A stretch of 64,000 nt of DNA from an uncultured Candidatus Saccharibacteria bacterium (GTDB taxonomy: Bacteria > Patescibacteriota > Doudnabacteria > UBA920 > 2-01-FULL-46-14), in assembly GCA_964360335.1 (NCBI GenBank), contig CAYHVH010000001.1:23426-87425 (forward strand), in the 5' to 3' direction. The translations under genes and the position numbers were made by a program. The notes below the pieces were generated by a model. It worked only from the letters and a program-made list of their open reading frames with translations, had not been told where the DNA came from and searched no databases. Position 1 is the stretch's first letter. Each line of letters begins with the position of its first letter. Positions 1,877 through 52,916 of the stretch are shown here, piece after piece.

Positions 1877-2008
1877 GAAACTTCCCTCCTCCCCAGGCGC
1901 CCGGCCTTCGTAGCCACTTCGGCGGAGTAGGCTGGGGAGGAGAAGGAGGAGAGGTCGAACTGTGGATCCTTGTATGCAACCTCTCTCCAGCTCTCCCCTC
2001 GCCAGGGG
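1872..2008. repeat. Family-A element, intergenic (murE start / ruvA stop), two units
   Basis: CCTCCTCCCCAGGCG...GGCTGGGGAGGAG...GGAGAGGTCGAAC and GCAACCTCTCTCCAGCTCTCCCCTCGCCAGGGGAGAGAG. Confidence 0.65.
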
Positions 2009-2021
2009 AGAGAGTTAAGCG

Positions 2022-2606: not shown

Positions 2607-2686
2607 GCAGGTATTATGCCTATTGAATAAGTTTTTTTCAATCTGCTAAAATGAAAGTTGACCCTGTCTAATCTAATGCTAATGCT

Positions 2687-2785
2687 GCCCTCTCCAGGCG
2701 TGGAGAGGGACTAAGGGAGAGGTCGCATTTGCGACATAATAAACGACCTCTCTTCCGGCCTCTCCCCACGCCTGGGGAGAGGAGA
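2687..2785. repeat. Family-A element, intergenic (ruvA / uvrB), two half-units; its 3' end GGAGAGGAGAAG lies at the Shine-Dalgarno position for uvrB
   Basis: CTCTCCAGGCGTGGAGAGGGACTAAGGGAGAGGTCGC ... CGACCTCTCTTCCGGCCTCTCCCCACGCCTGGGGAGAGGAGAAG, followed by the uvrB ATG at 2794. Confidence 0.65.
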
Positions 2786-2793
2786 AGTAGCTT

Positions 2794-5177: not shown

Positions 5178-6410
5178 TCAACCCCGGAACAGCTTGTAAA
5201 GTTTAAACAGCGCGTAAAATGCCCGATTCAAAACCAGATCCCGGGCGCCGACACCGTAGACTTCCTTGCCCGTCACTCCGGCCGTGACATACCGGGTTTT
5301 GAACCGGGTAATCCCAGCCCAAGGATGGTCTGGTTCGTTCGGCGGGGCGACGCCCCACAAATCATACCATTTTTTGCCGCGTTGTCTGCTTAATTTGATT
5401 GCTTCCCAAAGGACAAGGCTTGGAGCATTGGCGGTTCGCTCTTTGGCAGAAGAAGCCGCGTACAAATAAGTTCCGGAATCACCGAAAAGCATAATGACGG
5501 CGGCAGCCAGGATTTCGCCTTGATATTCGCCGACCAGAAGCTCGGCGTGGGGTGCAAGCGACCTCTCCTTTGGTCCCTCCCCACGCCTGGGGAGGGAAGA
5601 AGAAAATAAAGCTTCTACTTGCGGAGTATTTGACCCCTCCTCAACCCTCCCCTCCTGCCCGTCCGGCAGGCGGGCGTCAGGAGAGGGAGTCATGAAGATA
5701 TCACGGAATTTCATGAATCGCTCGCGCGGCCAAGATACAATCCCGTCTCGTTTGGTGGTTTCCTCCAAAAGCTTCAAGAAAATTTCAAAAGCCCCTTTGT
5801 CTTGAGTCGCTACTCGCACTTTTACTCCCCTGCGCTGGGCGAGGCGGATATTGTAGCGGGATTTTTCGTGCATATTCTCCAAGAGTTCTTCCTCGCTTCT
5901 GCTTAAATCCACCAAAATCGTGCGAGCTGGCTCCATCTGCCGAAGCAAAATCTCGGGCTTTCTGAAACCCAGACCTGCAAGCGACCTCTCCTTCAACTCC
6001 TCCCCATCGCCTGGGGAGGAAGAGACAGAAGGATGCGGCGGATTAATTCTCGCCAAAACGGATTTTTCCTGCCGGCCGATTTCTTTGATTTTTTCTATCA
6101 AGGCCTGCATACCCCCTCTCCACTCTCCCCCTAAGTTAGGGGGAGAAAAAGAGGGGGTACCGCCCAATTCATGATTCGTAATTCTTGATTCGTCGAAAAT
6201 CGGTCCCTTCGGCACTTCCAAATAAGTTCTGCCAAACGGCAGCCTTTTTATTACGACTTGCGCTAAAAGCTGGTTCTGGATATCGAAGCGATAAACTTTG
6301 TGGCCGAGAGCGGCTTGAAACTGCCCCCATTGCCAGGACTGGAGGAAAGAGGAAGGAGAAGAGTTCCTGGCTACAAATTCATTCCAATTATCTTTAGAAA
6401 GTAGATTCAT
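5178..6410 (-). CDS. FemAB-family peptidoglycan aminoacyltransferase (lipid II amino-acid transferase-like) carrying two in-frame repeat insertions
   Basis: FemAB/FemX-like N-terminus (SSFLQSWQWGQF) and C-terminal GNAT-like fold. 410 aa including inserts. Confidence 0.65.
   Translation of the reverse strand: MNLLSKDNWNEFVARNSSPSSFLQSWQWGQFQAALGHKVYRFDIQNQLLAQVVIKRLPFGRTYLEVPKGPIFDESRITNHELGGTPSFSPPNLGGEWRGGMQALIEKIKEIGRQEKSVLARINPPHPSVSSSPGDGEELKERSLAGLGFRKPEILLRQMEPARTILVDLSRSEEELLENMHEKSRYNIRLAQRRGVKVRVATQDKGAFEIFLKLLEETTKRDGIVSWPRERFMKFRDIFMTPSPDARLPDGQEGRVEEGSNTPQVEALFSSSLPRRGEGPKERSLAPHAELLVGEYQGEILAAAVIMLFGDSGTYLYAASSAKERTANAPSLVLWEAIKLSRQRGKKWYDLWGVAPPNEPDHPWAGITRFKTRYVTAGVTGKEVYGVGARDLVLNRAFYALFKLYKLFRG
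5566..5690. repeat. Family-A element, in frame in the FemAB-like gene (unit 1)
   Basis: GCGACCTCTCCTTTGGTCCCTCCCCACGCCTGGGGAGGGAAGAAG... Encodes ...SLPRRGEGPKERSLAP... Confidence 0.65.
5981..6160. repeat. Family-A element(s), in frame in the FemAB-like gene (unit 2 plus a nested palindrome)
   Basis: GCGACCTCTCCTTCAACTCCTCCCCATCGCCTGGGGAGGAAGAGACAGAAGG (encodes SPGDGEELKERSLAG) and CCCCCTCTCCACTCTCCCCCTAAGTTAGGGGGAGAAAAAGAGGGGG (encodes GTPSFSPPNLGGEWRGG). Confidence 0.65.
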
Positions 6411-6501: not shown

Positions 6502-9276
6502 TTACACGGCTTGCCGTGTCATCTCTTCCCAATTATCGCCGAACTTGGCTTCCACGACGAGGGGAACTTTGAGTTTATAAATATTCTGCATGATTTTGGT
6601 AATTTTTCCGGCATAGTCATCAACTTTCTTTTCGGCTATTTCAAACACCAGCTCATCGTGAACCTGTAAGAGCAACCGGCAATCCTCGCGAGACGTCAAA
6701 TTTTCCTCCGCCAGTTTGTTCATCGCCAGTTTGATAATATCCGCCGAAAGCGATTGAAACGGCATGTTGATGGCCGCTCGTTCAGCAGCGGCGCGAACTG
6801 GCCACTGCGAAGAATTAATCTCGGGGAGATACCGGAGTCGCCCGAGTTCGTTTTTGACGTAGCCCGAGCGGCGCGTTTCCCCAACTATTTCCTCAAGGTA
6901 GTGAGTCAAGCTGTGATAGGTTTCGAAATATTTATCGATAAAATCTTGGGCTTCGCCTTGGGACACTCCTTTGATCCGGCTCTTGAGACCATAAGCGGAA
7001 AGGCCGTAGAGTACCCCGAAATTTATGGTCTTGGCATCTCGGCGCATTTCCGGGGTAATTTCGACCTCTCCTCCAGCTCCTCCCCTCGCCAGGGGAGAAG
7101 GGAGGGATTGAAAAATCTCGCGAGCTGTTGCTTCGTGAATGTCGCCGCCTTCGTGAAAAACTTTAATCATTTTCTCGTCGCCCGACAAATGGGCGGCCAG
7201 ACGAAGCTCAATCTGGGAGTAGTCCACGGACAGCAATTTATACCCTGTTTCGGCAACGAACGCCCCGCGGATTTTTCGACCAAACTCGGTGCGGATCGGA
7301 ATGTTCTGGAGATTCGGTTCGCTGGAGGACAATCGCCCGGTGGCAGTAACTGTCTGGTTAAAACTTGTGTGTAGCCGCCGCGTTTGAGGACTAACCAAAT
7401 CCGGCAAGGCATCTAGATAAGTATTTTTAAGTTTCGTTAATTCCCGCCATTCCGATATCAAATCAATAATCGGATGCAATCCTTTGAGCTTCTCGAGTTC
7501 CGTGGCCGCCGTGGACAGGCCGGTTTTGCCTTTTTTGAGCTCCTCGGTGGGAATCCCCAATTTCTCAAATAATATCTGTTTTAGCTGGATCGGGCTGCCG
7601 ATGTTAAATCTCTCGCCCGAAAGCCGGTAAATCTTCTGTTCGAGTTTCGAAATCTCCGCCGTGGCCTCGGCCGACAACTCCTTCAAGCACGACGGATTGA
7701 CCTTTACTCCCCAGCGTTCCATTTCCGCCAAAACTCTCACCAGCGGCATTTCGATCTCATAAAAAATTTTCTCTAAATCTTTACTTCTTAGCTCTTTTTC
7801 CAGTTTTTGTTTTAGCCGGAAAGTGTAGTCCACATCCTCGCAACAGTAAGCCGCGACCTCTCGGACCGGCACTTCGGCCATGCTAATCTCTTTTTTGCCT
7901 TCGCCAATCAAACTTTTAATCGGGGTTTTCCGGAAGCCAAACTCGGTAAAACTTAGGGTGTCCAAATCGAAATTCCGCGCCCCGGGGTTTAAAAGATAGG
8001 CGGCAATCATCGTGTCAAAAAACTCTCCTCCCAAAATCACTCCGGCCTTTTGCAAAATCAAATAATCATACTTGAGATTATGGCCGATTTTCAGAACTTC
8101 CGGATTCTGCAAAATTTCCGTGAGGGCCGGGGAAATCATCGCCGCCGGCAGGTAAAAGGCCCGGTTTTCTTGCCACGCCAACCCGAGGCCGAGAAGCTCA
8201 GCCTGCATCGGGTGAACCGAGGTCGTTTCGGTATCAATAGCGATTTGTTTCTGCCTCTCAAGCTCAGTAATGATGCTTTGGAATTTTTTCGGCGTATCAA
8301 GGAGCTGATAGTCAAATTCCTCCTCGCCCCCTCTGCTCCCTCGAGCTCTACTTAGGGCAGGCTCATGAGGGGAGTGGGGGATGTCAGTCTTTGGCAGTTT
8401 ATCCAAAAGTGAACGGAACTCCAGCTCCTGAAAAAGTTTAAAAACTTTCTGTTCATCATAAGCCAGAAGCCGGGCCTGGGTTAAATCCAGTTTCACCGGG
8501 AGGTTTTTGACGATTGTTGCCAATTTTTTGGAAATTTCCGCATCCGCCCGGTGTTCCAGAAGCAGTCGAGCGACGCGCGGCTTGAGCGCCGAGTGGTCTT
8601 TGCCGACTAAATATTTATAAATTCCTTCCAAGGTCTTAAATTTTTGCAGGAGCTCGGTCGCGGTTTTTTCCCCGATGCCTTTGACCCCGGGAATGTTATC
8701 CGAAGGATCACCGCGCAGGGCTTTAAAATCTAGAAGTTCCTCGGGTCTGAGGCCATATCGCTCCCGAACCGCCCCCACGTCATAAAGTTTGGTTTCGGTC
8801 AAGCCTTGCTTAGGAGCATAGACTTTCACCCGTTCGTCTACTAATTGCAGGGTGTCCAAATCCCCGGTTAAAATCACAGTATCCAAATCTTCCTGCTTCC
8901 GGGCTTTTTCGGCCAGAGTGCCAATCAAATCATCAGCTTCATAACTTTCCAGTTCATAGACTGGAAGATTAAAAGCTCTGACCAATTCTTTGACGCGGGG
9001 AATTTGCTCATAAAGTTCGGCGGGGGCTTTAATTCTTGTTGCCTTATAAGGCTCATAAATTTTTTCCCGGAAAGTTGGCGCCGGAAAGTCAAACGTCACT
9101 GCCACGTACTCGGGCCGCAGTTCTTTGAGGGCTTTCAAAAACAACAGGGCAAAACCGTAAACGCCGTTTACTGGCTCGCCCTTTTTGGTGGACAGGTGAG
9201 GAATCGCGTGAAAGCCGCGGTGGACCAAAGCATTGCCGTCTACCAATAATAAAACTGGTTTATCTTTGCTGGACAT
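6502..9276 (-). CDS. polA: DNA polymerase I
   Basis: 924 aa. 5'-3' exonuclease, 3'-5' exonuclease-like and polymerase domains (motif RRDAKTINFGVLYG, and the motif-C region SQIELRLAAHLSGDE). Two in-frame repeat insertions. Confidence 0.95.
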   Translation of the reverse strand: MSSKDKPVLLLVDGNALVHRGFHAIPHLSTKKGEPVNGVYGFALLFLKALKELRPEYVAVTFDFPAPTFREKIYEPYKATRIKAPAELYEQIPRVKELVRAFNLPVYELESYEADDLIGTLAEKARKQEDLDTVILTGDLDTLQLVDERVKVYAPKQGLTETKLYDVGAVRERYGLRPEELLDFKALRGDPSDNIPGVKGIGEKTATELLQKFKTLEGIYKYLVGKDHSALKPRVARLLLEHRADAEISKKLATIVKNLPVKLDLTQARLLAYDEQKVFKLFQELEFRSLLDKLPKTDIPHSPHEPALSRARGSRGGEEEFDYQLLDTPKKFQSIITELERQKQIAIDTETTSVHPMQAELLGLGLAWQENRAFYLPAAMISPALTEILQNPEVLKIGHNLKYDYLILQKAGVILGGEFFDTMIAAYLLNPGARNFDLDTLSFTEFGFRKTPIKSLIGEGKKEISMAEVPVREVAAYCCEDVDYTFRLKQKLEKELRSKDLEKIFYEIEMPLVRVLAEMERWGVKVNPSCLKELSAEATAEISKLEQKIYRLSGERFNIGSPIQLKQILFEKLGIPTEELKKGKTGLSTAATELEKLKGLHPIIDLISEWRELTKLKNTYLDALPDLVSPQTRRLHTSFNQTVTATGRLSSSEPNLQNIPIRTEFGRKIRGAFVAETGYKLLSVDYSQIELRLAAHLSGDEKMIKVFHEGGDIHEATAREIFQSLPSPLARGGAGGEVEITPEMRRDAKTINFGVLYGLSAYGLKSRIKGVSQGEAQDFIDKYFETYHSLTHYLEEIVGETRRSGYVKNELGRLRYLPEINSSQWPVRAAAERAAINMPFQSLSADIIKLAMNKLAEENLTSREDCRLLLQVHDELVFEIAEKKVDDYAGKITKIMQNIYKLKVPLVVEAKFGDNWEEMTRQAV
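7061..7106. repeat. Family-A element in frame in the polA fingers region
   Basis: TCGACCTCTCCTCCAGCTCCTCCCCTCGCCAGGGGAGAAGGGAGGG. Encodes SLPSPLARGGAGGEVE immediately upstream of the RRxxKxxNFG O-helix. Confidence 0.65.
8318..8385. repeat. Degenerate family-A-like palindromic insert in the polA interdomain linker
   Basis: CCCCCTCTGCTCCCTCGAGC...GAGGGGAGTGGGGG. Encodes HSPHEPALSRARGSRGGEEE. Confidence 0.4.
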
Positions 9277-9379
9277 ATCTTCATGCTATCAAAAAATCGC
9301 CCCCAAGGCGACAGCTGGAAATTTCCAATTTCTAAACAACCTCCAAATCCCAACGACCAAAATTAGAAATTTTTTTGAA

Positions 9380-11050
9380 CTATTCCTCCGTCACCCGCCA
9401 GACTTCAGGGAGATCGGTAATTCCCTCCAAGGCCTTCAAGATCCCGTCCTGCTGCATAGTCAGCATCCCGGATGCGACCGCCGCTTTTTTGATTTCCAGA
9501 GTCGAGGCCTGTTGAAAAATCAGGCTTTCGATTTTTTCGTCCACGGCAAAGACCTCAAAGGCCCCGATGCGGCCCCGGTAGCCCAAATCATGGCACTCCG
9601 GACAGCCTCTGCTATGATAAAAAATTAGGTGCTCTGGTACGGTTACCGCCGCCTGGGGAGGAATTCGGGAAAGGGCAAGTTTAACCTGCTGCAGTTCCTC
9701 ACTACCGGGCCGGTAGGGCTCCTTGCAGTGCGGACAAATTTTCCGCAACAAGCGCTGGGCAATCAGGGCATTCAGAGCGGGAGCTAAGGTTACCGGCTTT
9801 ACTCCCAAATCCAAGAGCCGGGGAATGGCCCCAGCCGCGTCATTGGTATGCAGGGTGGAGAGCACGACATGGCCGGTCAGGGCGGCTTGGCTCGCGGTTT
9901 CGGCCGTTTCGTAATCGCGGATTTCTCCAACCATGACAATATCAGGATCCTGCCGGAGAATCGACCGCAGACCACTGGCAAAATCTACGCCGCTCGTGTG
10001 GTCAATCGGCGTCTGAACGATACCCTCCAACTGGTACTCCACCGGATCCTCCAGGGTAATAATTTTCACTCCGGGTTTGTTGAGGTGATTTAAAAAGGAA
10101 TATAAGGTCGTGGTTTTCCCCGAACCAGTCGGCCCGGTCGTCAAAGTCATGCCGTTGGGTTTTTTTAGTTCATGATTCACCACCTTCAGAGCCTGACCGT
10201 GCAACCCCAGTTTTTCGATGTCCAAGCCCACCTCCTGCATCCCCAAAATTCTCATCACTACAGACTCGCCGTGCGCCGAGGGCAACACCGAAACCCGAAT
10301 TTCCAAATTTCGCTCCGGCAACTTCACGGTAAATCTGCCGTCTTGGGCGACCGCCGTGACGTTAAGCTTCAGATTCGACAAAAGTTTGATCCGGGAAAGC
10401 AAAGAGTGTTGCAGACCGAGTGGAAAATCCAAAATTTCCGCCAATACCCCGTCCACCCGAAACCGGACCTTGAGTTGAGTTTTTTCCGGCTCGAGATGGA
10501 CATCCGAGGCCCGCATGATGATAGCCGCGCCAAGCATCAAGCCCACAAGCTCACTCGCAGAAATCGAGAGCAGGGATTCCCCCAAAGTCGGCAGGGCCTT
10601 GAATTTCTCCAGGACTTCCCGGCCGAGGGTTACCGCGACCTCGTGTTTGAGCGACAAAAAGGCGGGCAGAATTTTCTTGTACTGTTGCAGAGCGGCCGCG
10701 AGGGCCGTGCGCGCAACCAAATAAATCTGAACTTGGAATTTCCGCTTGGCCAATTGGGCGAGCAGAAGCTTGAGGCTCGGGTTTTGCGGTTCGGTAATTG
10801 CAACCTTCAGGAGCAAGCCGTCTTTGAAGAATGGCACGGCCGCGGCGGCAACGGCTTGTTCATACGGCACCAAATCCAAAGCCTCCTCGTCAATTGGTAG
10901 GCCCATGAGGTCAAAATATGGAAGAGAAAGAGCGGCGGCACGCCGTTGCGCTTCCTGCTCCTCGAACTTCCGATTGAGATCAGTGAAAACCCGCTGTACT
11001 CCCGCCCCGCCGTCCGGGGCCGGGACGTGTTTGCCTACTCCCGGAGCCAT
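9380..11050 (-). CDS. Type II secretion / type IV pilus assembly ATPase (GspE/PilB family)
   Basis: 556 aa. Walker A GPTGSGKTTT, GspE N-terminal domain, and a C-terminal CxxC...CxxC zinc motif (CPHC...CPEC). Confidence 0.85.
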   Translation of the reverse strand: MAPGVGKHVPAPDGGAGVQRVFTDLNRKFEEQEAQRRAAALSLPYFDLMGLPIDEEALDLVPYEQAVAAAAVPFFKDGLLLKVAITEPQNPSLKLLLAQLAKRKFQVQIYLVARTALAAALQQYKKILPAFLSLKHEVAVTLGREVLEKFKALPTLGESLLSISASELVGLMLGAAIIMRASDVHLEPEKTQLKVRFRVDGVLAEILDFPLGLQHSLLSRIKLLSNLKLNVTAVAQDGRFTVKLPERNLEIRVSVLPSAHGESVVMRILGMQEVGLDIEKLGLHGQALKVVNHELKKPNGMTLTTGPTGSGKTTTLYSFLNHLNKPGVKIITLEDPVEYQLEGIVQTPIDHTSGVDFASGLRSILRQDPDIVMVGEIRDYETAETASQAALTGHVVLSTLHTNDAAGAIPRLLDLGVKPVTLAPALNALIAQRLLRKICPHCKEPYRPGSEELQQVKLALSRIPPQAAVTVPEHLIFYHSRGCPECHDLGYRGRIGAFEVFAVDEKIESLIFQQASTLEIKKAAVASGMLTMQQDGILKALEGITDLPEVWRVTEE

Positions 11051-15726: not shown

Positions 15727-15802
15727 CAACATAAGTCCATATTGTCTACGTTTTTATGTAATTACATAATGTTGTAGACAAGCGAATTTAGCAAAAAGTA
15801 AA

Positions 15803-15838
15803 AAAGGAGACAGACTACAACGCGGTCTGTCAGCGCTT
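15803..15838 (-). repeat. 36-bp hairpin repeat copy 1 (AAAAAGGAGACAGACTACAACGCGGTCTGTCAGCGCT); terminator of the minus-strand RibA-like gene
   Basis: Identical copy at 17683-17717. On the minus strand it reads GACAGACCGCGTTGTAGTCTGTC then TCCTTTTT. Confidence 0.7.
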
Positions 15839-17653: not shown

Positions 17654-17682
17654 ATTTTCTGGACTAGGAAAAGGGGATAAAA

Positions 17683-17717
17683 AGGAGACAGACTACAACG
17701 CGGTCTGTCAGCGCTAA
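17683..17717 (-). repeat. 36-bp hairpin repeat copy 2; terminator of the minus-strand OMP-like gene
   Basis: Identical to 15803-15838. On the minus strand the hairpin is followed by TCCTTTTTAT. Confidence 0.7.
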
Positions 17718-23997: not shown

Positions 23998-24235
23998 TGA
24001 CCTTCAGAATTTTTGCCTCATGGAGCCGGAGTTCATTGGCCATCACGGCGCTTCGGGTTTTGACGGTGAGGGTTTTTTTCTGGAGACTGACTGGCCTGAT
24101 CGCCTCGGATTCGGGGATCAAATTTTTTATTTCCGCCCGATAGAGATCGAAAATTCGCACGATTTCCAGCTGCCGCGAAAGCTCGTCTTTGCGGCTGAAT
24201 TTGCCCTGGAGCGTTTCCCCTAATTTTTTAAACAT
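23945..24235 (-). CDS. DUF721 (DciA-like) protein downstream of recF
   Basis: 96 aa. Conserved position after recF in the dnaA-dnaN-recF cluster. Confidence 0.55.
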   Translation of the reverse strand: MFKKLGETLQGKFSRKDELSRQLEIVRIFDLYRAEIKNLIPESEAIRPVSLQKKTLTVKTRSAVMANELRLHEAKILKVINQTVGHQAVKRVIYRF

Positions 24236-25358
24236 TTATCGCGGTCGAAGTTACTGCTCCCTGATTGACGGCATAGACCTGCGCCCTTTTCGGCAAAAAA
24301 TCCTGAACCTCTTCGAGATGAATAGTAGTGAGAAATACCTGTTTCAGGATGGACAAAAAGCCGGTTAATTTTTTCTGGTGCTCAAAATCAAACTCGGAAA
24401 AGATATCATCCAAAAGCATGATTGGGGATTCTCCGGTTTGCTCCTCCAGATATTGCTTTTCCGTAAACTTTAGCGCCAGGGTCAAGCTCCGCATCTGCCC
24501 ACGAGAAACAAACCCAACCACGTCCTTGCCCTGAAGCAGGGTCGCAAAGTCATCGCGGTGCGGCCCGAGAAGAGTGGTACCGCGCTGCCGTTCGGTTTGG
24601 CGCAAACTGCGAAGCTTTTCGAGAAATTCCTGCTTGTTCACCGCTCCAGACATACGATAAACAAACTTCACTTCCGTAAGTTCGGGGGATAGGGAAGCGA
24701 TAATGGCGGGAAGGGAAGCGTTCAAATATTTTAAGAGGTTGTCTCGGTGCTGACAGATGAGGCTGCCAAACTCCGCCAATTTTTCATCCCAAATGTCCAT
24801 CTCTGGAAGCCCGAGTTTTTCATCATCGATACGCTCCCGGCCTTGACCGGAAATCTTTTGCCAGAGCTCATTGCGCTGCCGTAAACTTTTTTCATACTGC
24901 TGTTGAGCATATCGATATTGCCGAGTACCGAGCGACAGGGTTTCGCTTAGAAACCGCCGCCGGTTGCTAGGGGACCGCGTTAAGATATTCAAGTCCTGGG
25001 GCACGAAACTGACAATGGGCAGGATCCCGGCATACTTGCTGCGCGGTGTTTCTTGGCCATTAACTTTGAGTTTGTAAATTGGCCGTGTCTCTCTATATTC
25101 TGCGTAAACCTCCTGAACGACCGGTTCCCGGTTTTCCAACTCTATTTTTGCGCGCAAAAAATTTCGCCCTTCCAAAAACAACTGCCCAAATTTGCTTTCG
25201 GGAAACTTTCGCAGCGTGCTCCCGAAATATATACCCTCCAAAAAATTGGTTTTTCCGGCACCATTCGGCCCCGTTAAAACTACAAAGCCCTGATCGAGAT
25301 GCAAATCAAGGCTTTGAAAGTTTCGAAAGTTTTGGAATAGGAGCCGGGCAATATGCAT
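24228..25358 (-). CDS. recF: DNA replication and repair protein RecF
   Basis: 376 aa. Walker A GPNGAGKTN and the SMC-like signature. Confidence 0.9.
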   Translation of the reverse strand: MHIARLLFQNFRNFQSLDLHLDQGFVVLTGPNGAGKTNFLEGIYFGSTLRKFPESKFGQLFLEGRNFLRAKIELENREPVVQEVYAEYRETRPIYKLKVNGQETPRSKYAGILPIVSFVPQDLNILTRSPSNRRRFLSETLSLGTRQYRYAQQQYEKSLRQRNELWQKISGQGRERIDDEKLGLPEMDIWDEKLAEFGSLICQHRDNLLKYLNASLPAIIASLSPELTEVKFVYRMSGAVNKQEFLEKLRSLRQTERQRGTTLLGPHRDDFATLLQGKDVVGFVSRGQMRSLTLALKFTEKQYLEEQTGESPIMLLDDIFSEFDFEHQKKLTGFLSILKQVFLTTIHLEEVQDFLPKRAQVYAVNQGAVTSTAINV

Positions 25359-25360
25359 TT

Positions 25361-26455
25361 TCAGATCTTGATCGGCATGACGATATAGAGGTAGTTGTCC
25401 CTCCCTGCCGGTACCAAGGCCGCAGGAGACGAAGAGTTGATGACTCTTAAAGAAACCTGCTCGTCTGGTAAATTATTCAGGCACTCCAGGAGATAGCGGT
25501 AGTTGAAAACTGCCGCATTTTTTTCGCCCGTTAATTCCCCGAACAGGCGAATTTCGCTCCCTCCCACCTGGACCGCTTGGGACTTGATTACCACCTGCTT
25601 CCCTGGCGGATTGAGTTCCAGCTCAATGTTGTTGGTGTCCCCGGCGAAAAGGCTTGCCGCCTTCAAAGCCTGTACAAATTCGCCCCGCTTGAGCTCTGCC
25701 TGGGTTGTGAAGTTTTGAGGGACTATCTGTTTGTAATCTGGATACTGGCCCTCGATCAGACGCGAAATAAGTTCAACCTCCTCGGTTCTCAAACAAATTT
25801 GCCCTTCCTTGAGAAAGACCTCGATTGTTCCCTCCCCCATGCTTCTACTTGCTTCATTGACGGCGCGGGTTGGGACAATCACCTGGCGGTTGCTACCCAC
25901 CTCTTCCCCAAGTGGGATTTTTACTTCTGCCAAGCGGTAGCGGTCGGTGGTAGCCAGGGTTAGCCCTTTCCCCTCAAAACTAAACAACACCCCAGAAATT
26001 TCCGGCTGGGTTTCGGAAAAGGCCGCGGCAAATCCTACCTCCCCAACTCCTTCCCGAAGCGCTTTCCCTGAGAGTTTGGTATAAACCCCGCCTTCCCCCC
26101 CGGGAATGAGGGGAAAGTCTTCTACCCCCAAGCCGTTGATATGAGTTTTGGCGTTTTCCCCTTCCAGCAACAGGTCGGTTTTTTCTGTGGAGATAGTGAG
26201 CTTTTCCGTTAGCAAATTAGCCACGAGTTCGTTGAGTAATTTCGCCGGTACCGTAAGCTCCCCGTCTTCTACTACTTTCCCCCCCACCCAAGTATTAACC
26301 GCCATCTCTAGATTTGTGGTGGTGAGTTTGAGGCGACCCTTCTCTGTGCGGAGCAAAATATTGTTGAGAATGGGTAGGGCGTTCCCTCCCCCAATAATCC
26401 GCGAGCAGATCTGTAAGCCAGCATTGAGGTTTTTTTTTGTACACTGCATTTTCAT
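25361..26455 (-). CDS. dnaN: DNA polymerase III beta sliding clamp
   Basis: 364 aa, three-domain clamp architecture, immediately downstream of dnaA. Confidence 0.9.
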   Translation of the reverse strand: MKMQCTKKNLNAGLQICSRIIGGGNALPILNNILLRTEKGRLKLTTTNLEMAVNTWVGGKVVEDGELTVPAKLLNELVANLLTEKLTISTEKTDLLLEGENAKTHINGLGVEDFPLIPGGEGGVYTKLSGKALREGVGEVGFAAAFSETQPEISGVLFSFEGKGLTLATTDRYRLAEVKIPLGEEVGSNRQVIVPTRAVNEASRSMGEGTIEVFLKEGQICLRTEEVELISRLIEGQYPDYKQIVPQNFTTQAELKRGEFVQALKAASLFAGDTNNIELELNPPGKQVVIKSQAVQVGGSEIRLFGELTGEKNAAVFNYRYLLECLNNLPDEQVSLRVINSSSPAALVPAGRDNYLYIVMPIKI

Positions 26456-26499
26456 AAAAGTGATTGTTTCTAAAGAAGAAGTTTTAGTAAGGAGTAATT

Positions 26500-26660
26500 A
26501 TAGTAATTGCTGGGGGAATGTGGGAAAGGGGGAGATTCTGCTGCTAGCGCCCGTCCCCAGTTCGCGGCCGGTGGGGAAGGTGGTGACAGGGGTGGGGAGA
26601 GATTGGGGGGGAAGGAAACAAGGACAGGATCTTTCCCCCAATCCCCCCACAGTTAATCCA
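26500..26660. repeat. G-run-rich palindromic spacer between dnaA and dnaN (GGGGA/TCCCC hairpins), possibly related to family A
   Basis: GATTGGGGGGGAAGG...CTTTCCCCCAATCCCCCC (roughly 13-bp stem), plus GTCCCCAG...GGTGGGGAAGG and GGGGTGGGGAGAG. Confidence 0.4.
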
Positions 26661-28017
26661 TATAGATTCGGTTGGTAATCAGGCTTATTTCATGTTTGAG
26701 GGCTTCCTTTTCCTTTCCTACCCTTTGGACTTTGTCAATGGCGTGGATGACTGTGGTGTGGTCGCGCCCGCCGAAAATTTCCCCTATCATCGGTAGACTG
26801 GTCTCGAGTTCTTTCCTGATAATATACATCGCCACCTGGCGGGGGAGGACGTACTCTTTTTTGCGGGATTGTTTGACGAGGTCGTCAATTGTCACATTGT
26901 AGAAGTCCGCCACGACCTCCATAATTTTTTTTGCCGAGGCCATCCGTTTTTTTGGAGGGAAAACAATGTTGGCAAGGATATTTTTCACCTTGTCCAAGGT
27001 TGGGGAGGTGTTGTTGAGCTGACAAAAAACCATCAGGCGGTTAAGCGAGCCCTCGAGTTCGCGAATGTTAGTCTCCACGGTTTGGGCAATATACTCAAGC
27101 ACCCCTGGCCCAACATCGTAACCTCGCTCTTTGGCTTTTGAGCGCAAGATTGCAAGCCGAGTTTCGAAGTCCGGCGGCTGGACGTCTGCAATCATCCCCC
27201 ATTCAAAGCGGGAAACCAGCCGCTCTTCAATGGCAGGGATTTCCTTTGGTAAACGGTCCGAAGATAGCACTATTTGTTTGTTGATTTGATGTAAGGCGTT
27301 GAAGGTGTGAAAAAATTCTTCCTGGGTTTGTTCCTTGCCTGCCAAAAATTGTACGTCATCGATGAGGAGGACGTCTACCCCCCGATAGAGATTTTTAAAA
27401 GTTTCCCCTTTGTTGTAGCGAACCGCTTGAATGAATTCATTGGTAAATTTTTCCGTGGTGACATACAAAACTTGCTTGGCCACCCCACTATTTAAAAAAT
27501 CATTCCCGATCGCCTGCAGGAGGTGGGTTTTTCCCAGACCGACCCCGCCGTAAATGAACAACGGGTTGTAAGCCCTTCCCGGATTTTTGGTTACTCCCTG
27601 AGCGGCGGCAACGGCCAATTCGTTGTTGCCACCAACAATAAAGTTCAAGAAAGTGTATTTTGGGTTAAGCCCCGTGCTGAGGGAGGAAGACTTGACGGTT
27701 GGGGTATGTTCGGGCGAAGCGGGAAGTGACACAATCCTGGGAGGAGGTTCGGCCGCCCGGCGGTTATAGCCACCGGTAATTTGGTATTCGATTTGTTTGA
27801 TTTCGGGGTTAACAGCGCGGATAGCCCGCAGAATTGCCTGATGGAACTTGTTCATCAGCCATTCTTTGGTAAAGGCGTTGGGCACACCAATAACCACTTT
27901 TCCCGAACTTTGTTCCAAAATTGCGGTGTTTTTAAACCAGGTGGTGAAGCTCGCCTTGGACAGGGAGAGCTCAAGGTTTCCCAGAACCGCCTGCCAGATT
28001 TGTTTAGTGGAGTTCAC
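26653..28017 (-). CDS. dnaA: Chromosomal replication initiator DnaA
   Basis: AAA+ motifs (GGVGLGKTHLL, LIDDVQF) and a C-terminal DnaA-box-binding domain. The real N-terminus (IWQAVLGNLELSLSKASFTTWF) implies a GTG start near 28017. The longer ORF extension to 28233 is rejected. Confidence 0.85.
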   Translation of the reverse strand: MNSTKQIWQAVLGNLELSLSKASFTTWFKNTAILEQSSGKVVIGVPNAFTKEWLMNKFHQAILRAIRAVNPEIKQIEYQITGGYNRRAAEPPPRIVSLPASPEHTPTVKSSSLSTGLNPKYTFLNFIVGGNNELAVAAAQGVTKNPGRAYNPLFIYGGVGLGKTHLLQAIGNDFLNSGVAKQVLYVTTEKFTNEFIQAVRYNKGETFKNLYRGVDVLLIDDVQFLAGKEQTQEEFFHTFNALHQINKQIVLSSDRLPKEIPAIEERLVSRFEWGMIADVQPPDFETRLAILRSKAKERGYDVGPGVLEYIAQTVETNIRELEGSLNRLMVFCQLNNTSPTLDKVKNILANIVFPPKKRMASAKKIMEVVADFYNVTIDDLVKQSRKKEYVLPRQVAMYIIRKELETSLPMIGEIFGGRDHTTVIHAIDKVQRVGKEKEALKHEISLITNRIYMD

Positions 28018-28211
28018 TTTTGTACCCCATTCTTTTTGCTTATGTTTTTCCCTTGCTGCTATTCTAACAGAATGGTTATCAACATGTAAAATAATAGGAA
28101 ATCCCCAGGAATAAGCCAAAAAAAGGATTGTATGTGGATAGGGTGTGTAAAACCAGTGCATCAAATTTTTGAATTGGCCAAATTCGATTTGGGAAGGTAT
28201 AATTAGAAAAG
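28018..28211. promoter_or_regulatory. AT-rich dnaA/rpmH divergent intergenic region with DnaA-box-like 9-mers (candidate oriC / dnaA promoter)
   Basis: TTATCAACA and TGTGGATAG are each one mismatch from the TTATCCACA box. The region is AT-rich. Confidence 0.4.
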
Positions 28212-38786: not shown

Positions 38787-38862
38787 TGGTGGGCCAGGAT
38801 GGATTCGAACCATCGACCCCGGCTTTATAAGAGCCGTGCTCTAACCGCTGAGCTACTGGCCC
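38787..38862 (-). tRNA. tRNA-Ile with anticodon UAU (CCA encoded)
   Basis: GGGCCAGTAGCTCAGCGGTTAGAGCACGGCTCTTATAAAGCCGGGGTCGATGGTTCGAATCCATCCTGGCCCACCA. Clean cloverleaf. Anticodon loop is CTTATAA. Overall similarity to tRNA-Ile. Confidence 0.75.
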
Positions 38863-46212: not shown

Positions 46213-48270
46213 ATGGCTGACCTTGTGAAACTCAAAGAACTCGCCAGGCTCGTTCGTTACTATATTCTGGTCTCGACCACGGCCGCGGGGTCCGGGCACC
46301 CAACATCTTCGCTGTCTGGCGTGGAACTGATGACGGCATTGATGTTTGGCGGCTATTTTCGCTTTGACTTGAATCGTCTGGGATACGCAAACAATGACCG
46401 GCTGATTTTCTCCAAAGGCCATGCCTCGCCCCTCTTCTATGCGCTGTGGGCAGCGGCTGGCGCGCTGACGGAAAAAGAGCTTTTGACTTTGCGCAAATTT
46501 GGCAGCCCTTTGGAGGGGCATCCTACCCCGGCATTTCCCTATACCGAAGCGGCGACAGGCTCTTTGGGACAAGGGTTGTCAATTGGCGTGGGCATGGCCC
46601 TTAATGCCAAGCTTGACCGGCTTCCCTATCGCACTTATGTGCTTTTGGGGGACAGTGAAATGGCCGAGGGCTCGCAATGGGAGGCGATTCAGCTCGCCGC
46701 GTACTATAAACTTGATAATTTGGTCGGCGTTCTCGATGTCAATCGTTTGGGTCAACGAGGGCAGACGATTTACGGGCATGATATTAAAGCTTATCAGAAA
46801 CGCATCGCGGCGTTCGGGTGGAAGACTATAGTCGTGAATGGGCATAATTTGAATGAGATTTTGAAAGCGTACAAACAGGCGACCCCCTCTTCATCTCCCC
46901 CTATCCCGTTTGACGGGACAGGGGGAGAAAAGAGAGGGGGTGGAAGGCCGGTGATGATCATTGCCAAAACCATTAAAGGTAAAGGAGTTTCATTTATCGA
47001 AAACAAAGAAGGCTGGCATGGGAAGGCGCTTTCCCCGGAGGATTTGAGGAAGGCACTACGAGAATTGGGGAAAGTCGACAAGAAGATGCGAGGAGAGATG
47101 GCAAAGCCGGAGAGAATTAGTAGACCGGAGACAGTAGATAGTAGATCGGAAAGCAAAGAAAAAATTAATTACAAAATCGGAGAAGAGGCGGCAACAAGGA
47201 AGGCTTACGGTAACGCCCTAGTCAGGATTTATCCGAAGTTTCCGAATATCGTAGTCCTCGACGCCGAGGTTTCCAATTCAACTTACGCGGAGATATTCAA
47301 GGAAAAATATCCGGACCGGTTTTTGGAGATGTTTGTGGCGGAGCAGAATATGGTGGGTGCGGCTCTTGGTCTTTCGCGGCGCGGCAAGATCCCGTTTGTT
47401 TCGACCTTTGCCGCGTTCCTGACGCGCGCTTTTGACCAAATCCGAATGAGCCAGTATTCGGCCGCCAACATCAAGTTTGTGGGCTCGCACGCCGGGGTGT
47501 CCATCGGCGAGGACGGGCCGTCGCAGATGGGCCTCGAGGATTTGGCAATGTTTCGCAGTATTTTAGGAAGCGTGGTTTTGTATCCTTCGGATGCGGTTTC
47601 AACCGATAAGCTTGTGGAAGCGGCAGCTAAGCACAAAGGCATTGTCTATATCAGAACAACGCGAATGGAAACCCCGGTGCTTTATTCCCCGGGGCAGGAG
47701 TTCAAAATCGGCGGGAGTAAAGTTTTGCGCCATAGCCGGAAAGACGTGGCGACAGTGCTGGCGGCCGGGATAACATTGCATGAAGCGTTGGCCGCTTATG
47801 AAGAACTCAAGAAGCAAGGGGTTTTGATTCGGGTGATTGACTTGTACAGCATCAAACCGATTGATAAAAAGACATTGACGCAGGCTGCCAAAGAAACGGG
47901 AGCGATAATCACGGTCGAGGACCATTATCCCGAGGGCGGGATTGGGGAAGCGATTAGAAGCGCTCTTTCTGACCTCCCTCCCCAAAGCATGGGGAGGGAT
48001 AAAGGGAGAGGTTTTCCGCCAGCCCGCCCCGCTTCGCTTGGCGAGGCCGGGGAGGCGGATCCGCCTTGGGCAGAGAAACTCCCTGGTAAAACCGACCTCT
48101 CTCCTTCTCTCCCCATCACCTGGGGAGAGGGTAGGATTATCTCTTTAGCGGTGCGCAAAATGCCGCGAAGCGGCAAACCGCAGGAGCTTTTGGATTATGA
48201 AGAGATATCGCGCGATGCTATTATTAAGGAAGTAAAGAGAATTGTTTCTAAATCGTCACCTCGAATTTAA
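46213..48270 (+). CDS. tkt: Transketolase (full length) carrying 2-3 in-frame repeat insertions
   Basis: ThDP-binding motifs (GHPTPAF..., LLGDSEMAEGSQWEA), pyrimidine-binding and C-terminal domains. 685 aa. Confidence 0.9.
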   Translation: MADLVKLKELARLVRYYILVSTTAAGSGHPTSSLSGVELMTALMFGGYFRFDLNRLGYANNDRLIFSKGHASPLFYALWAAAGALTEKELLTLRKFGSPLEGHPTPAFPYTEAATGSLGQGLSIGVGMALNAKLDRLPYRTYVLLGDSEMAEGSQWEAIQLAAYYKLDNLVGVLDVNRLGQRGQTIYGHDIKAYQKRIAAFGWKTIVVNGHNLNEILKAYKQATPSSSPPIPFDGTGGEKRGGGRPVMIIAKTIKGKGVSFIENKEGWHGKALSPEDLRKALRELGKVDKKMRGEMAKPERISRPETVDSRSESKEKINYKIGEEAATRKAYGNALVRIYPKFPNIVVLDAEVSNSTYAEIFKEKYPDRFLEMFVAEQNMVGAALGLSRRGKIPFVSTFAAFLTRAFDQIRMSQYSAANIKFVGSHAGVSIGEDGPSQMGLEDLAMFRSILGSVVLYPSDAVSTDKLVEAAAKHKGIVYIRTTRMETPVLYSPGQEFKIGGSKVLRHSRKDVATVLAAGITLHEALAAYEELKKQGVLIRVIDLYSIKPIDKKTLTQAAKETGAIITVEDHYPEGGIGEAIRSALSDLPPQSMGRDKGRGFPPARPASLGEAGEADPPWAEKLPGKTDLSPSLPITWGEGRIISLAVRKMPRSGKPQELLDYEEISRDAIIKEVKRIVSKSSPRI
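46880..46945. repeat. Family-A-type nested palindrome in frame in tkt
   Basis: CGACCCCCTCTTCATCTCCCCCTATCCCGTTTGACGGGACAGGGGGAGAAAAGAGAGGGGGTGG. Encodes TPSSSPPIPFDGTGGEKRGGG. Confidence 0.65.
47970..48140. repeat. Composite family-A insertion (three palindromic units, ~171 bp) in frame in the tkt C-terminal domain
   Basis: TGACCTCCCTCCCCAAAGCATGGGGAGGGATAAAGGGAGAGG ... GGCGGATCCGCC ... CCGACCTCTCTCCTTCTCTCCCCATCACCTGGGGAGAGGG. Encodes a 57-aa loop. Confidence 0.7.
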
Positions 48271-50930: not shown

Positions 50931-51827
50931 ATGAGGCCCTCAAATTTAAAAACCCGCATCTTTCTTGACTCTGGGGATCCGAACGAAACGCGTGAAGTCA
51001 TAAAGTTTCTCGGGTTTTTGGACGGTCAGACGACTAATCCCAGCTTAATTGCCAAGAACCCGGAAACGACCGGCAAGAAATTTTCCCAAAAAGAGATTTT
51101 GGAATTTTATAAAAAAGTCGTGGTTGAGGTTTCCGCTCTGATCCCCGCCGGTTCCGTATCAGTTGAGGTTTACGCTGACCCTTCGACAAGCTCAGGGGAT
51201 ATGTTAGAACAAGGTCGAGATTTTTTTTCTTGGATTCCAAACGCACACATCAAATTTCCGACAACCAAAGAGGGCCTGAAGGCCGCTGAAATTGCCGTTA
51301 AAGAAGGCATGCGCGTCAATTTGACTTTGTGCTTTTCCCAGGAGCAGGCGGCGGCCGTGTACGCGGCAACGAGGGGAGCAAAAAAAGGGCAGGTCTTTGT
51401 TTCGCCGTTTGTCGGGCGGCTGGATGATCGGGGGGAGAACGGGATGCAGCTCGTTGAGAATATTATCAAAATGTATCGGGCGGGAGACGGGCATGTGGAG
51501 GTGCTGACCGCGAGCGTACGGAATCTCAATCATTTGCAGTACGCAATTCAGCTCGGTTCCGACATCCTGACCGCGCTGTTGAAGGTTTTGAAGGAGTGGG
51601 CCGACTCCAATTTCCCTCCCCAGGCGTGGAGAGCCCCCTTCTCTATCCCTCCCCAGGCGAGGGGAGGGATTAAGGGAGAGGTCGAAACGGCAAAGGAGTT
51701 GAAGCCAATACCCTACCGCGAGGTTTCTCTTGACAATCCCTGGCAGGACTACGACATTCGTCATGAGCTGACCGACGTCGGCATTGAAAAGTTTGCCGCG
51801 GATTGGAACGCGCTTATCAAGCCATAA
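50931..51827 (+). CDS. tal: Transaldolase / fructose-6-phosphate aldolase family (TalC/MipB-type) with an in-frame repeat insertion
   Basis: DSGDPNE..., FPTTKEGLKAAE..., NLTLCFS motifs. 298 aa. Confidence 0.85.
   Translation: MRPSNLKTRIFLDSGDPNETREVIKFLGFLDGQTTNPSLIAKNPETTGKKFSQKEILEFYKKVVVEVSALIPAGSVSVEVYADPSTSSGDMLEQGRDFFSWIPNAHIKFPTTKEGLKAAEIAVKEGMRVNLTLCFSQEQAAAVYAATRGAKKGQVFVSPFVGRLDDRGENGMQLVENIIKMYRAGDGHVEVLTASVRNLNHLQYAIQLGSDILTALLKVLKEWADSNFPPQAWRAPFSIPPQARGGIKGEVETAKELKPIPYREVSLDNPWQDYDIRHELTDVGIEKFAADWNALIKP
51611..51685. repeat. Family-A element in frame in tal
   Basis: ...CCCTCCCCAGGCGTGGAGAG...CCCTCCCCAGGCGAGGGGAGGGATTAAGGGAGAGGTCGAA. Encodes FPPQAWRAPFSIPPQARGGIKGEVE. Confidence 0.7.
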
Positions 51828-51857
51828 AATAATATTCTTCGAACGGTATTTAACAAT

Positions 51858-52916
51858 ATGATGCGCGACGCGATTCTCAGTTTTCCGAAGCAGTTCCGGT
51901 TCGTCCCGAAGGTGGAAAACGGGCCGGTGAAAAAATACAAAAAATACATTGTCGCCGGCATGGGCGGTTCGCACCTCGCCGCGGATATTTTGAAGACTTT
52001 AAAACCGGAATTGGATATCATCGTACATAGTGATTACGGATTGCCGGCTTTTCTCGACCCCTCCCGGCCTTCGGCCACCCTCCCCTCGTCAGGAGAGGGG
52101 GGAAGTAAGGAAAAACGTCTGGAGAGGCGAATTTCGCAAACTTTGCTCATCGCGAGTTCCTATTCGGGTAATACTGAAGAGACACTGGATGCATTTGAAC
52201 AAGCAAGAAGTAAAGGAATCGCAGTGGCGGCGATTGCGGTTGGCGGCAAGCTTCTGGAACTGGCCAAGCAGTATCAAACTCCTTATGTTCAGATGCCGGA
52301 TACGGGGATTCAGCCCCGTTCGGCCCTGGGCTTCAATTTGCGAGCGCTTCTGAAAATCATGAAGCAAGGCGAGCTCCTCAGGCAGAGCCGGGAGCTGGCT
52401 AAAAGTTTGCAGCCTAAGAATATCGAGGAAAAAGGCCGAGCGCTCGCGCAAAAGCTAAAGAGTCGGATGCCGGTAATTTACGCGTCGCAAAAAAACTATT
52501 CGCTCGCCTATAACTGGAAAATCAAATTTAACGAGACGGGCAAAATCCCGACCTTTTACAATATTTTTCCGGAACTGAATCACAACGAGATGTCCGGATT
52601 TTCCGCCGCAGGCGGACCCGCCTCTGGCGGGGACGCACCCGATCCTAAAAGTTTGTCAGAAAAATTTTATTTTCTCTTTTTGCATGACAGCAGCGATCAC
52701 CCGCAAATCCAAAAGCGAATGGACGCAACCGCGAAACTTTATCGGGAGCGCGGTTTGCCAGTGGAAATTTTACCGATTCAGGGGGAGAACGCCATGCACA
52801 AAATCTTCTCCTCACTGGTCCTTGCCGACTGGGCGGCACTTTACACGGCCGAGGGATATGGGTTTGAGGCCGAACGGGTGCCGATGGTGGAGGAGTTCAA
52901 GAAACTGATTAAGTGA
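51858..52916 (+). CDS. Bifunctional phosphoglucose/phosphomannose isomerase (archaeal-type SIS-domain PGI/PMI) with an in-frame repeat insertion
   Basis: Two SIS domains (VAGMGGSHLAADIL...; ...LIASSYSGNTEETL). 352 aa. Confidence 0.7.
   Translation: MMRDAILSFPKQFRFVPKVENGPVKKYKKYIVAGMGGSHLAADILKTLKPELDIIVHSDYGLPAFLDPSRPSATLPSSGEGGSKEKRLERRISQTLLIASSYSGNTEETLDAFEQARSKGIAVAAIAVGGKLLELAKQYQTPYVQMPDTGIQPRSALGFNLRALLKIMKQGELLRQSRELAKSLQPKNIEEKGRALAQKLKSRMPVIYASQKNYSLAYNWKIKFNETGKIPTFYNIFPELNHNEMSGFSAAGGPASGGDAPDPKSLSEKFYFLFLHDSSDHPQIQKRMDATAKLYRERGLPVEILPIQGENAMHKIFSSLVLADWAALYTAEGYGFEAERVPMVEEFKKLIK
52054..52110. repeat. Family-A-like palindrome in frame in the PGI/PMI gene
   Basis: CTCGACCCCTCCCGGCCTTCGGCCACCCTCCCCTCGTCAGGAGAGGGGGGAAG. 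Encodes DPSRPSATLPSSGEGGSKE. Confidence 0.6.

Follow-up and report, generated by a model that had tools for sequence, protein, structure and literature searches.

A 64,000-nucleotide stretch of contig CAYHVH010000001.1 (hereafter the window), from an uncultured bacterium of the Candidate Phyla Radiation (CPR, or Patescibacteria), contains adjacent genes for transaldolase (tal) and for a bifunctional phosphoglucose/phosphomannose isomerase (PGI/PMI, encoded by pgi), and both genes carry inserts that are absent from most of the 120 homologs compared for each. We conclude, with a probability of about 0.7, that these inserts are copies of a short dispersed DNA repeat with an intrastrand-triplex architecture, in which it is the nucleotide structure that is maintained and the encoded peptide is a by-product. 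A preliminary description of the same DNA had proposed that each gene holds one in-frame copy of a repeated element, and this held up: In a profile search of the window (nhmmer), the tal copy is a strong match (49.7 bits, E = 1e-14) and the pgi copy a weak one (18.8 bits, E = 5e-05). The insert peptides that it reported are also real, with coordinates displaced by one base in tal and by two bases in pgi. The source is an ultra-small groundwater organism; the identical transaldolase protein is encoded on contigs from 0.1-µm filtrates of the Hainich aquifer and on an NCBI contig of 134,858 bp, and the nearest named transaldolase homologs belong to Wildermuthbacteria, Doudnabacteria, and similar groups.

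The family was defined by repeat finding, a hand-seeded alignment of 14 copies, and the nhmmer search, for which the profile was built from 10 window copies. It comprises about 16 copies in the window, with a unit of ∼40–60 bases and nucleotide identity between copies of up to 95%. Each unit follows the layout YYYCC-CTCCCC, a 4- to 6-nt loop, GGGGAG-xyz, a 3-nt spacer, zyx-GAGAGG, and TYGAA; typical parts are a pyrimidine arm close to TCCCTCCCC, the complementary purine arm GGGGAGGGA, a second purine tract AGGGAGAGG, and a TCGAA end. The ends are sharp and conserved (YYYCC...GGTYGAA), and in a flank profile of 83 copies, conservation was limited to positions −5 to +4 around them. The two arms form a hairpin with 96.7% of cells paired and with compensatory changes at 5 of its 10 pairs, a result equaled by none of 500 shuffles. 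The T-A/A-T pair that closes the loop covaries as well, though it lies outside the pattern by which copies were selected.

What sets this repeat apart from a simple hairpin is the purine tail. It repeats the purine arm in reverse order, without being its complement, and the two covary. In 72 of the 78 parsed copies, the three bases that end the arm are mirrored exactly by the three that open the tail, and five mirror triplet types occur (GGA/AGG, AGG/GGA, GAA/AAG, GAG/GAG, and GGG/GGG). Across the parsed copies, mismatches number six under a mirror model versus 134 under a direct-repeat model; for example, tail GGGAGGGG goes with arm GGGGAGGG, and arm GGAGAG with tail GAGAGG. A long palindrome, in which the tail pairs with an upstream outer arm, was considered and rejected: Palindromy does not explain the tail because a pairable upstream arm (a Watson-Crick partner) is found in only seven of 77 copies. 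When a hairpin is followed by a purine tract that runs antiparallel to its purine strand and matches that strand base for base, the sequence has the code of the purine-motif triple helix, with G.G-C and A.A-T triads. It is the mirror symmetry that allows the kind of element to be recognized: The order arm, loop, arm, spacer, and mirror tail is, as read from the sequence, that of the class-II purine-motif intrastrand triplexes of the Escherichia coli BoxC/PIT/TMECO repeats. The covariation between arm and tail indirectly supports the triad pairing scheme that such a fold would use.

Two sets of rules for triplex motifs were applied to the copies. A strict scan (9-nt blocks, at most one mismatch in each, short loops) returned seven window loci, including the tal copy, versus none in 50 Markov simulations. 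The published ITxF criteria for class-II purine-motif intrastrand triplex motifs (Holder 2015) call for a pyrimidine block, a complementary purine block, and a second purine block of 6–15 nt with at most one mismatch, and also ask that both loops be 1–6 nt. The three blocks are present in the tal copy (TCCCTCCCC/GGGGAGGGA/AGGGAGAGG, with no Watson-Crick mismatch and one triad mismatch) and in the pgi copy (8-nt blocks, with one Watson-Crick mismatch and no triad, or mirror, mismatch). The loops of the tal copy (6 and 3 nt) fall within the published range, as do those of most copies; the second loop of the pgi copy is 12 nt long and self-paired. ViennaRNA models hairpins only, and its fold z-scores were weak (−2.6 to +1.0), since shuffled purine/pyrimidine-rich sequence folds too, and we did not use them as evidence.

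The tal gene (50931–51827, plus strand) encodes 298 amino acids with a clear transaldolase domain (Pfam TAL_FSA, 6.7e-47) and holds 1.5 units. The complete unit, TCCCTCCCCAGGCGAGGGGAGGGATTAAGGGAGAGG, lies in the sense orientation at 51646–51686 and passed the triplex criteria with a 9-nt stem. It consists of the pyrimidine arm (51646–51654), the loop AGGCGA, the purine arm (51661–51669), the spacer TTA, and the mirror tail (51673–51681), followed by TCGAA. Ahead of it, also on the plus strand at 51611–51633, is a truncated unit (TTTCCCTCCCC-AGGCGT-GGAGAG; nhmmer E = 1.3e-4) with a pyrimidine arm, a loop, and a partial purine arm, which forms a direct repeat (D7) with the complete unit. Together they encode the insert peptide FPPQAWRAPFSIPPQARGGIKGEVE (51612–51686), and the DNA of the copy ends, on the plus strand, in ...GGGAGAGGTCGAA (51674–51686). 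The AlphaFold model is confident overall (mean predicted local distance difference test score [pLDDT] 92.7) and falls to a pLDDT of 46–70 over residues ∼231–258. The insert lies in a clade-specific segment that is not present in structure 1wx0. Between the motifs KEW..G(L/F) and LKPIPY, the homologs usually have ∼13 residues versus 29 in the window.

Three orthologous transaldolases (loci L003, L004, and L118, at 66%–77% protein identity) have an element that begins at the same codon and in the same orientation, with different contents. The window has the truncated and the full unit, L118 a single short unit, L003 a full unit and a degenerate hairpin, and L004 a single unit whose loop contains a nested second hairpin and which is read in a different frame. 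In other CPR lineages, the same loop holds unrelated GC-rich or AT-rich repeat-like peptides. As a separate observation, an AT-rich inverted repeat (AAATTTTAAATCACAAATTCTAAA...) lies at 36316–36415, between ruvC and yebC, and AT-rich repeats like it (also in L117 at 9157–10011) encode peptides resembling KFQISNFKFQ in the tal loop of other CPR lineages, which suggests a second in-frame repeat family.

The pgi gene (51858–52916, plus strand; 352 amino acids; Pfam bact-PGI_C, 2.5e-39; AlphaFold mean pLDDT 90.9) carries its unit antisense to the host, at 52053–52112 on the minus strand. Read on that strand, the unit has the pyrimidine arm CCCTCTCC, the loop TGACGA, the purine arm GGGGAGGG, a 12-nt mini-hairpin TGGCCGAAGGCC that replaces the 3-nt spacer, the tail GGGAGGGG, and then TCGAG. 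On the plus strand the copy starts with CTCGACCCCTCCC... and is a direct repeat (D8) of the polA copy at 7059–7124; positions 52056–52112 encode the insert peptide DPSRPSATLPSSGEGGSKE. The insert corresponds to residues 64–93 of the query versus two residues in PDB 1tzb, and the loop between GLPx and LxIASSYSG, usually 7–11 residues in the homologs, has 33 in the window, with a pLDDT of 65 over residues 71–80. The window, L003, L004, and L117 all carry the unit at the same codon, antisense, and with the shared mini-hairpin in place of the spacer. These orthologs differ by compensatory changes, from GGCC/GGCC to GCCC/GGGC in the mini-hairpin and from CTCCCC/GGGGAG to CTCTCC/GGAGAG in the main stem, and identity at third codon positions is 68%–77% in the insert versus 45%–48% elsewhere in the gene. 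Another homolog, P0127, retains DLSRP..TRG, which looks like a deletion remnant and would favor an old insertion in pgi. A second GC-rich insert in pgi, SAAGGPASGGDAPDP (52602–52646, plus strand), is a double hairpin (CCGCC-GCAG-GCGG and CCCGCC-TCT-GGCGGG) that is unrelated to the triplex-type unit and single copy in the window. It has a pLDDT of 52–60, is absent from most PGI homologs, and recurs at the same position in CPR proteins P0126, P0130, P0140, and P0142–P0146.

Conservation of the DNA at orthologous sites is seen in other genes as well. Between the window and L119, whose RuvC proteins share 72% identity, the ruvC copy matches at 37 of 40 nt, with three identical stems and all differences in two loops; third codon positions match at 12 of 13 sites in the copy versus 42% in the rest of the gene. 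In general, the stems do not differ between orthologous copies, at distances where synonymous sites in the rest of the gene have reached saturation. In the syntenic locus L090, the polA insert is kept, and the Mur ligase and FemAB sites have different or fewer units. The conserved polA, ruvC, and pgi sites, set against these variable ones, indicate that some copies are old and structurally frozen and that others turn over.

Most copies are found within genes: 12 of the 16 in the window, and 55 of 94, in frame, in related CPR loci. By Pfam scan, the window genes are ordinary housekeeping genes, and the intragenic hosts are the genes for a Mur ligase (two copies), FemAB (three), PolA, RuvC, transketolase (two), transaldolase (1.5 units), and PGI; two spacers also hold copies. 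This range of unrelated genes agrees with the view of the preliminary description that there is no functional targeting. For the preference for loop regions that it proposed to test, the inserts proved to lie in loops modeled with low confidence, which solved structures lack or have in a much shorter form. Intragenic copies sit in disordered, exposed surface loops that tolerate extra residues, as the falls in pLDDT over the tal and pgi inserts illustrate. The density of one copy per 4–5 kb that it gave is right as an average (∼1 per 4 kb, or 16 in 64 kb) and wrong as an even spread: Ten copies fall within 1.2–7.1 kb versus ∼1.5 expected under uniformity, and none were found in 7.2–36.1 kb, after 52.2 kb, or in the 7 kb beyond the left end (L115). 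In related genomes, the density appears to be roughly one copy per 5–13 kb.

Orientation follows no rule that we could detect. The tal and pgi copies had been described as opposite in orientation to copies in minus-strand genes; this is true of tal, where the unit is the reverse complement of those copies and sense to its host, and untrue of pgi, where it shares their absolute orientation and so lies antisense to the host. We rejected the rule implied there, by which the strand of the host gene would set the orientation: The nine sense and three antisense intragenic copies of the window (the latter being the pgi, tkt-2, and murE-2 copies) are not a significant departure from parity, and 60 loci of related CPR genomes hold 28 sense and 27 antisense intragenic copies. 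Nor was there a clear bias in orientation relative to the replication arms around the dnaA/yidC origin region.

Of the other explanations, the one that survives best is that the repeat is a non-autonomous transposon, whether a miniature inverted-repeat transposable element (MITE), a repetitive extragenic palindrome (REP), or a REPIN, moved in trans by, for example, a REP-associated tyrosine transposase (RAYT) or an IS200/IS605-type HUH enzyme that recognizes the hairpin. The tail would then be a cleavage or guide segment and not a third strand, and the intragenic copies would be the survivors of random insertion. Dispersed copies with sharp conserved ends are what a transposon would leave; half of the window copies stand in close inverted pairs, as in REPINs, nested and tandem copies exist, and the same loop holds different units in different lineages. 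HUH transposases such as that of IS608 do recognize a hairpin together with nearby bases through noncanonical pairing. However, neither a transposase nor a RAYT was found among the ∼50 window open reading frames scanned with Pfam, and the flanks of 83 copies share no target motif and no target-site duplication, which is the outcome of the check for a local-sequence target preference proposed in the preliminary description. The GTAG/CGTC tag of RAYT-type REPs is likewise absent, and the two hallmarks of MITEs, terminal inverted repeats and target-site duplications, are missing here (an outer arm in seven of 77 copies, and no flanking repeats). Further, no copies were found in 2.9 million viral contigs, and those copies that were checked are old, being common to relatives at 61%–77% protein identity. 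Mobility genes were also not found near TMECO by Holder et al. (PMC4666352). We regard mobilization as an unlikely alternative.

We give considerably less credence to an element that acts at the RNA level, as a hairpin in mRNA that affects stability, pausing, or local translation rate, with the potential for a DNA triplex being incidental. The hairpin is strong and covarying, transcription of REPs is common and their action is thought to be that of RNA (PMC3733652), and a pyrimidine-motif triplex of RNA is one that the pyrimidine-rich strand might in principle adopt. But the random orientation relative to the host (28:27) means that half of the transcripts contain the complement, and purine-motif triplexes reportedly do not arise in RNA (PMC4666352). 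A simple hairpin also leaves unexplained the conserved mirror tail, for which 70 of 77 copies offer no Watson-Crick partner.

That the inserts were selected for the peptides they encode, whether as flexible linkers rich in Pro/Gly/Glu or as interaction motifs, or are convergent low-complexity sequence, is very improbable. The inserts are in frame, free of stop codons, and in exposed loops, and some peptides recur, such as GGIKGEVE and LPRRGEGIRERS. A single copy is read in the frame in which the consensus spacer ATTAA would supply a TAA stop; it has ATAAA instead, which points to translation through the element. The host frame is open through every intragenic window copy. Against selection on the peptide, all three frames and both strands are in use, so that the same DNA yields unrelated peptides; the constraint must therefore be on the DNA, and the encoded peptide is a by-product. 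The L004 tal site keeps the DNA and shifts the frame, the sequence is no different in intergenic copies, there is conservation at third codon positions, and copies reach 95% nucleotide identity. Finally, repeat-induced chimeras of metagenomic assembly or binning can be practically dismissed, since, although GC-rich hairpins can disturb short-read assembly and the L001 scaffold has N gaps elsewhere in pgi and in rpoC, three assemblies from different samples are base-identical across the elements (the tal-pgi stretch of L002 is 100% identical to that of the window and that of L001 99.7%, with all differences outside the elements), host frames are open, and orthologous copies come from unrelated projects (Logan, NCBI, ENA). 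The split pgi of L001, considered as a polymorphism, was ruled out as such because it coincides with a scaffold N gap.

Returning to a repeat with triplex architecture, the reading that we prefer, one strand can fold into the hairpin, and the tail can then run antiparallel beside the purine arm, with G.G-C and A.A-T triads. Such a fold could form transiently on DNA that is single-stranded during replication, repair, or transcription, and it might give the element a role at the DNA level or drive local rearrangement, with polymerase stalling, slippage, and repair as conceivable consequences. Local rearrangement would account for tal's partial duplication, for the nested hairpins and inverted pairs, and for the reuse of the same loop in relatives.

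Several points weigh against this reading. The triplex fold is one that we infer from sequence symmetry alone, and for the E. coli relative, the double-stranded form gave no triplex signal and in vivo dimethyl sulfate footprinting did not support a stable triplex (PMC4666352). The mirror covariation appears to reflect about five subfamilies, each related internally by descent, and so a small number of independent events, and the copies behind the covariation counts were chosen by patterns that fix part of the stems and tail. The window pgi copy is degraded (18.8 bits, fold z-score ∼0), and its 12-nt second loop exceeds published limits. Loop-masked neighbor-joining trees of tal and pgi are star-like and too poorly resolved to prove single ancient insertions, leaving these undecided against recurrent insertion. 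Conservation of stems at orthologous sites could also stem from gene conversion among copies or repeated insertion at hot spots and not from selection; selection on DNA structure, gene conversion, and repeated hits on hot-spot loops could each contribute. A stronger claim, that purifying selection on DNA structure preserves the units within essential CPR genes and that the mirror covariation is the first comparative (phylogenetic) evidence of a purine-motif intrastrand DNA triplex that forms and has importance in vivo, is one that we advance only as a tentative and rather doubtful possibility. If it were true, the triplex might serve in vivo as, for example, a programmed pause, a signal for recombination or repair, or a site of protein binding, and the cell would tolerate 15–25 extra residues in its enzymes to keep the units.

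The closest known relatives of the CPR unit are the BoxC/PIT/TMECO repeats of E. coli (Hoyne and Maher 2000; Holder 2015). The TMECO motif, CCCTCNCCC-N3-6-GGGNGAGGG-N3-GGGNGAGGG with TTA or CCG as second loops, occurs frequently in inverted pairs without strand bias and without mobility genes nearby; as a single-stranded oligonucleotide, it forms a stable triplex in vitro by circular dichroism and nuclear magnetic resonance, and it has been tied to local genome instability (Holder 2015; PMC4666352). The CPR unit shares with it a 9-nt C-rich stem, a 3- to 6-nt loop, a 9-nt G-rich stem, a 3-nt loop, and another 9-nt G-rich stem, the TTA and CCG second loops, G.G-C and A.A-T triads with often one mismatch, multiple copies without strand bias, close inverted pairs, and no mobility gene found in association. 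The two are nonetheless distinct. The TMECO consensus pattern has no matches in the window, and the CPR unit has an additional conserved TCGAA end. TMECO is always intergenic in E. coli K-12 (PMC4666352), whereas the CPR copies are mostly in genes. E. coli strains vary in their unstable TMECO loci; in CPR, several copies have stayed at orthologous sites through deep divergence. The TMECO consensus is symmetric; the CPR arms are asymmetric, so that the mirror relation can be told from a direct repeat and is seen to covary, and the CPR family thus offers a sequence-based test of the triad pairing scheme that the E. coli consensus does not.

In their genomic behavior, the CPR copies also resemble two other groups of repeats. 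The Rickettsia palindromic elements (RPEs; Ogata et al. 2000) are, in the outline given by a review (PMC10969869), insertions common to several species, of which RPE-1 is ∼100–150 bp long and is described as encoding a conserved peptide. To go by that outline, the two have in common palindromic repeats inserted in frame into unrelated housekeeping genes of a small genome, at fold-compatible sites, with insertions shared between species; the CPR unit indeed lies in frame in unrelated genes at structurally permissive sites. It differs from the published length and consensus of RPEs in being ∼40–60 bp long, in any frame, with a mirror purine tail, and in another phylum, and its peptides, which change with frame and strand, lack the conservation described for RPEs. 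Intragenic GTAG/CGTC REPs (Di Nocera et al. 2013) are 20- to 40-bp hairpins, mostly singletons and inverted dimers, of which a minority lie in open reading frames, where they encode 20–30 residues; the genes belong to many classes, often DNA repair (uvrA/B, polA, recBCD; PMC3733652). The CPR copies in polA and ruvC, and in the uvrB and ruvA spacers, recall this distribution, and their intragenic share is far higher. They have no unpaired tag (GTAG, CGTC, or TGTC/CCTC) by the stem; its 5′ flank is YYY, and its 3′ flank is the mirror tail. Unlike the stem of CGTC REPs, theirs does not start with A/T pairs, and it is followed by a 9-nt mirror tail and TCGAA, not CCA. Close inverted hairpin pairs (2671–2797, 1925–2017, 1210–1340, and 47958–48134) are REPIN-like; unlike REPINs, single units predominate and are conserved alone, and no RAYT is present among the window genes scanned. 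REPINs are reportedly REP doublets that form hairpins, a description said to go back to Bertels and Rainey in 2011.

A pattern scan of one genome per species found, among the matches listed (loci L006–L114), the same layout in many CPR metagenome-assembled genomes (MAGs) and, as multi-copy repeats, in Anaerolineae, Bradyrhizobium, Nostoc/Scytonema, Ignavibacteria, and others; CTCCCCTCCCCGAATTCGGGGAGGGGTTGGGGGAGAGGT in the Anaerolineae MAG H39_480 is one example. Their spread over these groups indicates that the architecture is widespread. A search of the available literature linking CPR/Patescibacteria to REP, REPIN, RAYT, MITE, or such repeats returned nothing relevant. The element is a triplex-type (BoxC/PIT-like) repeat that behaves like RPEs or intragenic REPs, in a phylum from which it had apparently not been reported. 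Its component parts are already known; the high intragenic fraction, the natural mirror covariation, and the conservation of stems at orthologous coding sites are new. Many CPR/Patescibacteria enzymes carry 12- to 30-residue Pro/Gly/Ser/Glu-rich loop inserts of DNA-repeat origin, which should not be taken for functional motifs specific to a lineage; masking them is advisable when aligning sequences, building phylogenies, or interpreting structures. Until now, triplex-type repeats were seen as intergenic curiosities that destabilize E. coli genomes, and common, conserved copies in the coding sequences of ∼1-Mb genomes call an "instability only" view into question.

The remaining copies of the window illustrate the same range of arrangements. 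In the Mur ligase gene, a sense copy at 1210–1264 (minus strand; 46.3 bits, triplex criteria satisfied) forms an outward-facing inverted pair (I11) with an antisense variant at 1301–1340 (plus strand). Inverted pairs also occupy the spacer between the Mur ligase gene and ruvA (1925–1961, plus, and 1972–2017, minus), identified by repeat finding and the profile search, and the ruvA/uvrB spacer, where the tails face each other (pair I5; 2671–2730, plus, and 2740–2797, minus; 50.1 and 49.3 bits, with support from the triplex scan as well). FemAB has three copies on the minus strand, a canonical one at 5553–5614 and a variant with a nested GC hairpin at 5626–5696, together spanning 5553–5696 (61.8 bits), and a third at 5977–6036 (44.3 bits). 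The polA copy (7057–7111, minus), supported by the profile search, triplex criteria, and structure comparison, lies in the fingers loop before the O-helix and adds ∼10 residues ahead of the O-helix of Taq polymerase. The ruvC copy (36169–36228, minus; 58.8 bits, triplex criteria) adds 16 residues relative to 1hjr in the turn of the first beta-hairpin. Two copies in the C-terminal part of transketolase (47958–48134), one sense (47958–48014) and one antisense (48088–48134), were found by the profile search and triplex criteria.

Some of the host genes have further repeats. In FemAB, a different triplex-type palindrome at 6111–6158 (TCTCCCCCT-AAGTT-AGGGGGAGA-AAA-AGAGGGGGT) satisfies the triplex criteria on both strands and codes for part of an N-terminal insert (SFSPPNLGGEWRGG) that the L090 ortholog lacks. 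The transketolase gene (46213–48270) has another repeat-like stretch, SSSPPIPFDGTGGEKRGGG, that is not in two orthologs, and the L070 transketolase (1784–3916) has an insert of ∼50 residues with IPPQAWGG at another site; thus, insert sites vary between lineages within one gene.

Other features of the window were noted besides the repeat. A dnaA-dnaN-recF/yidC cluster at 24–30 kb (24228–29623) comprises minus-strand recF-like, dnaN, and dnaA genes and a plus-strand yidC that starts at 28931. It coincides with both the switch in gene strand and the minimum of the cumulative GC skew (∼28–30 kb), from which we conclude that a replication-origin-like region lies within the window. The two copies of a perfect 37-nt direct repeat (15801–15837 and 17679–17715), which has an internal hairpin (GACAGAC...GTCTGTC), flank a 1.9-kb segment with a GTP-cyclohydrolase-II-like gene and a TrmB-family regulator. 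An Rfam scan of the window returned three tRNAs and nothing else. In most bacteria, AUA is read by a lysidine-modified CAT tRNA; here, a tRNA-Ile gene with the anticodon TAT (UAU) lies at 38787–38862 on the minus strand.

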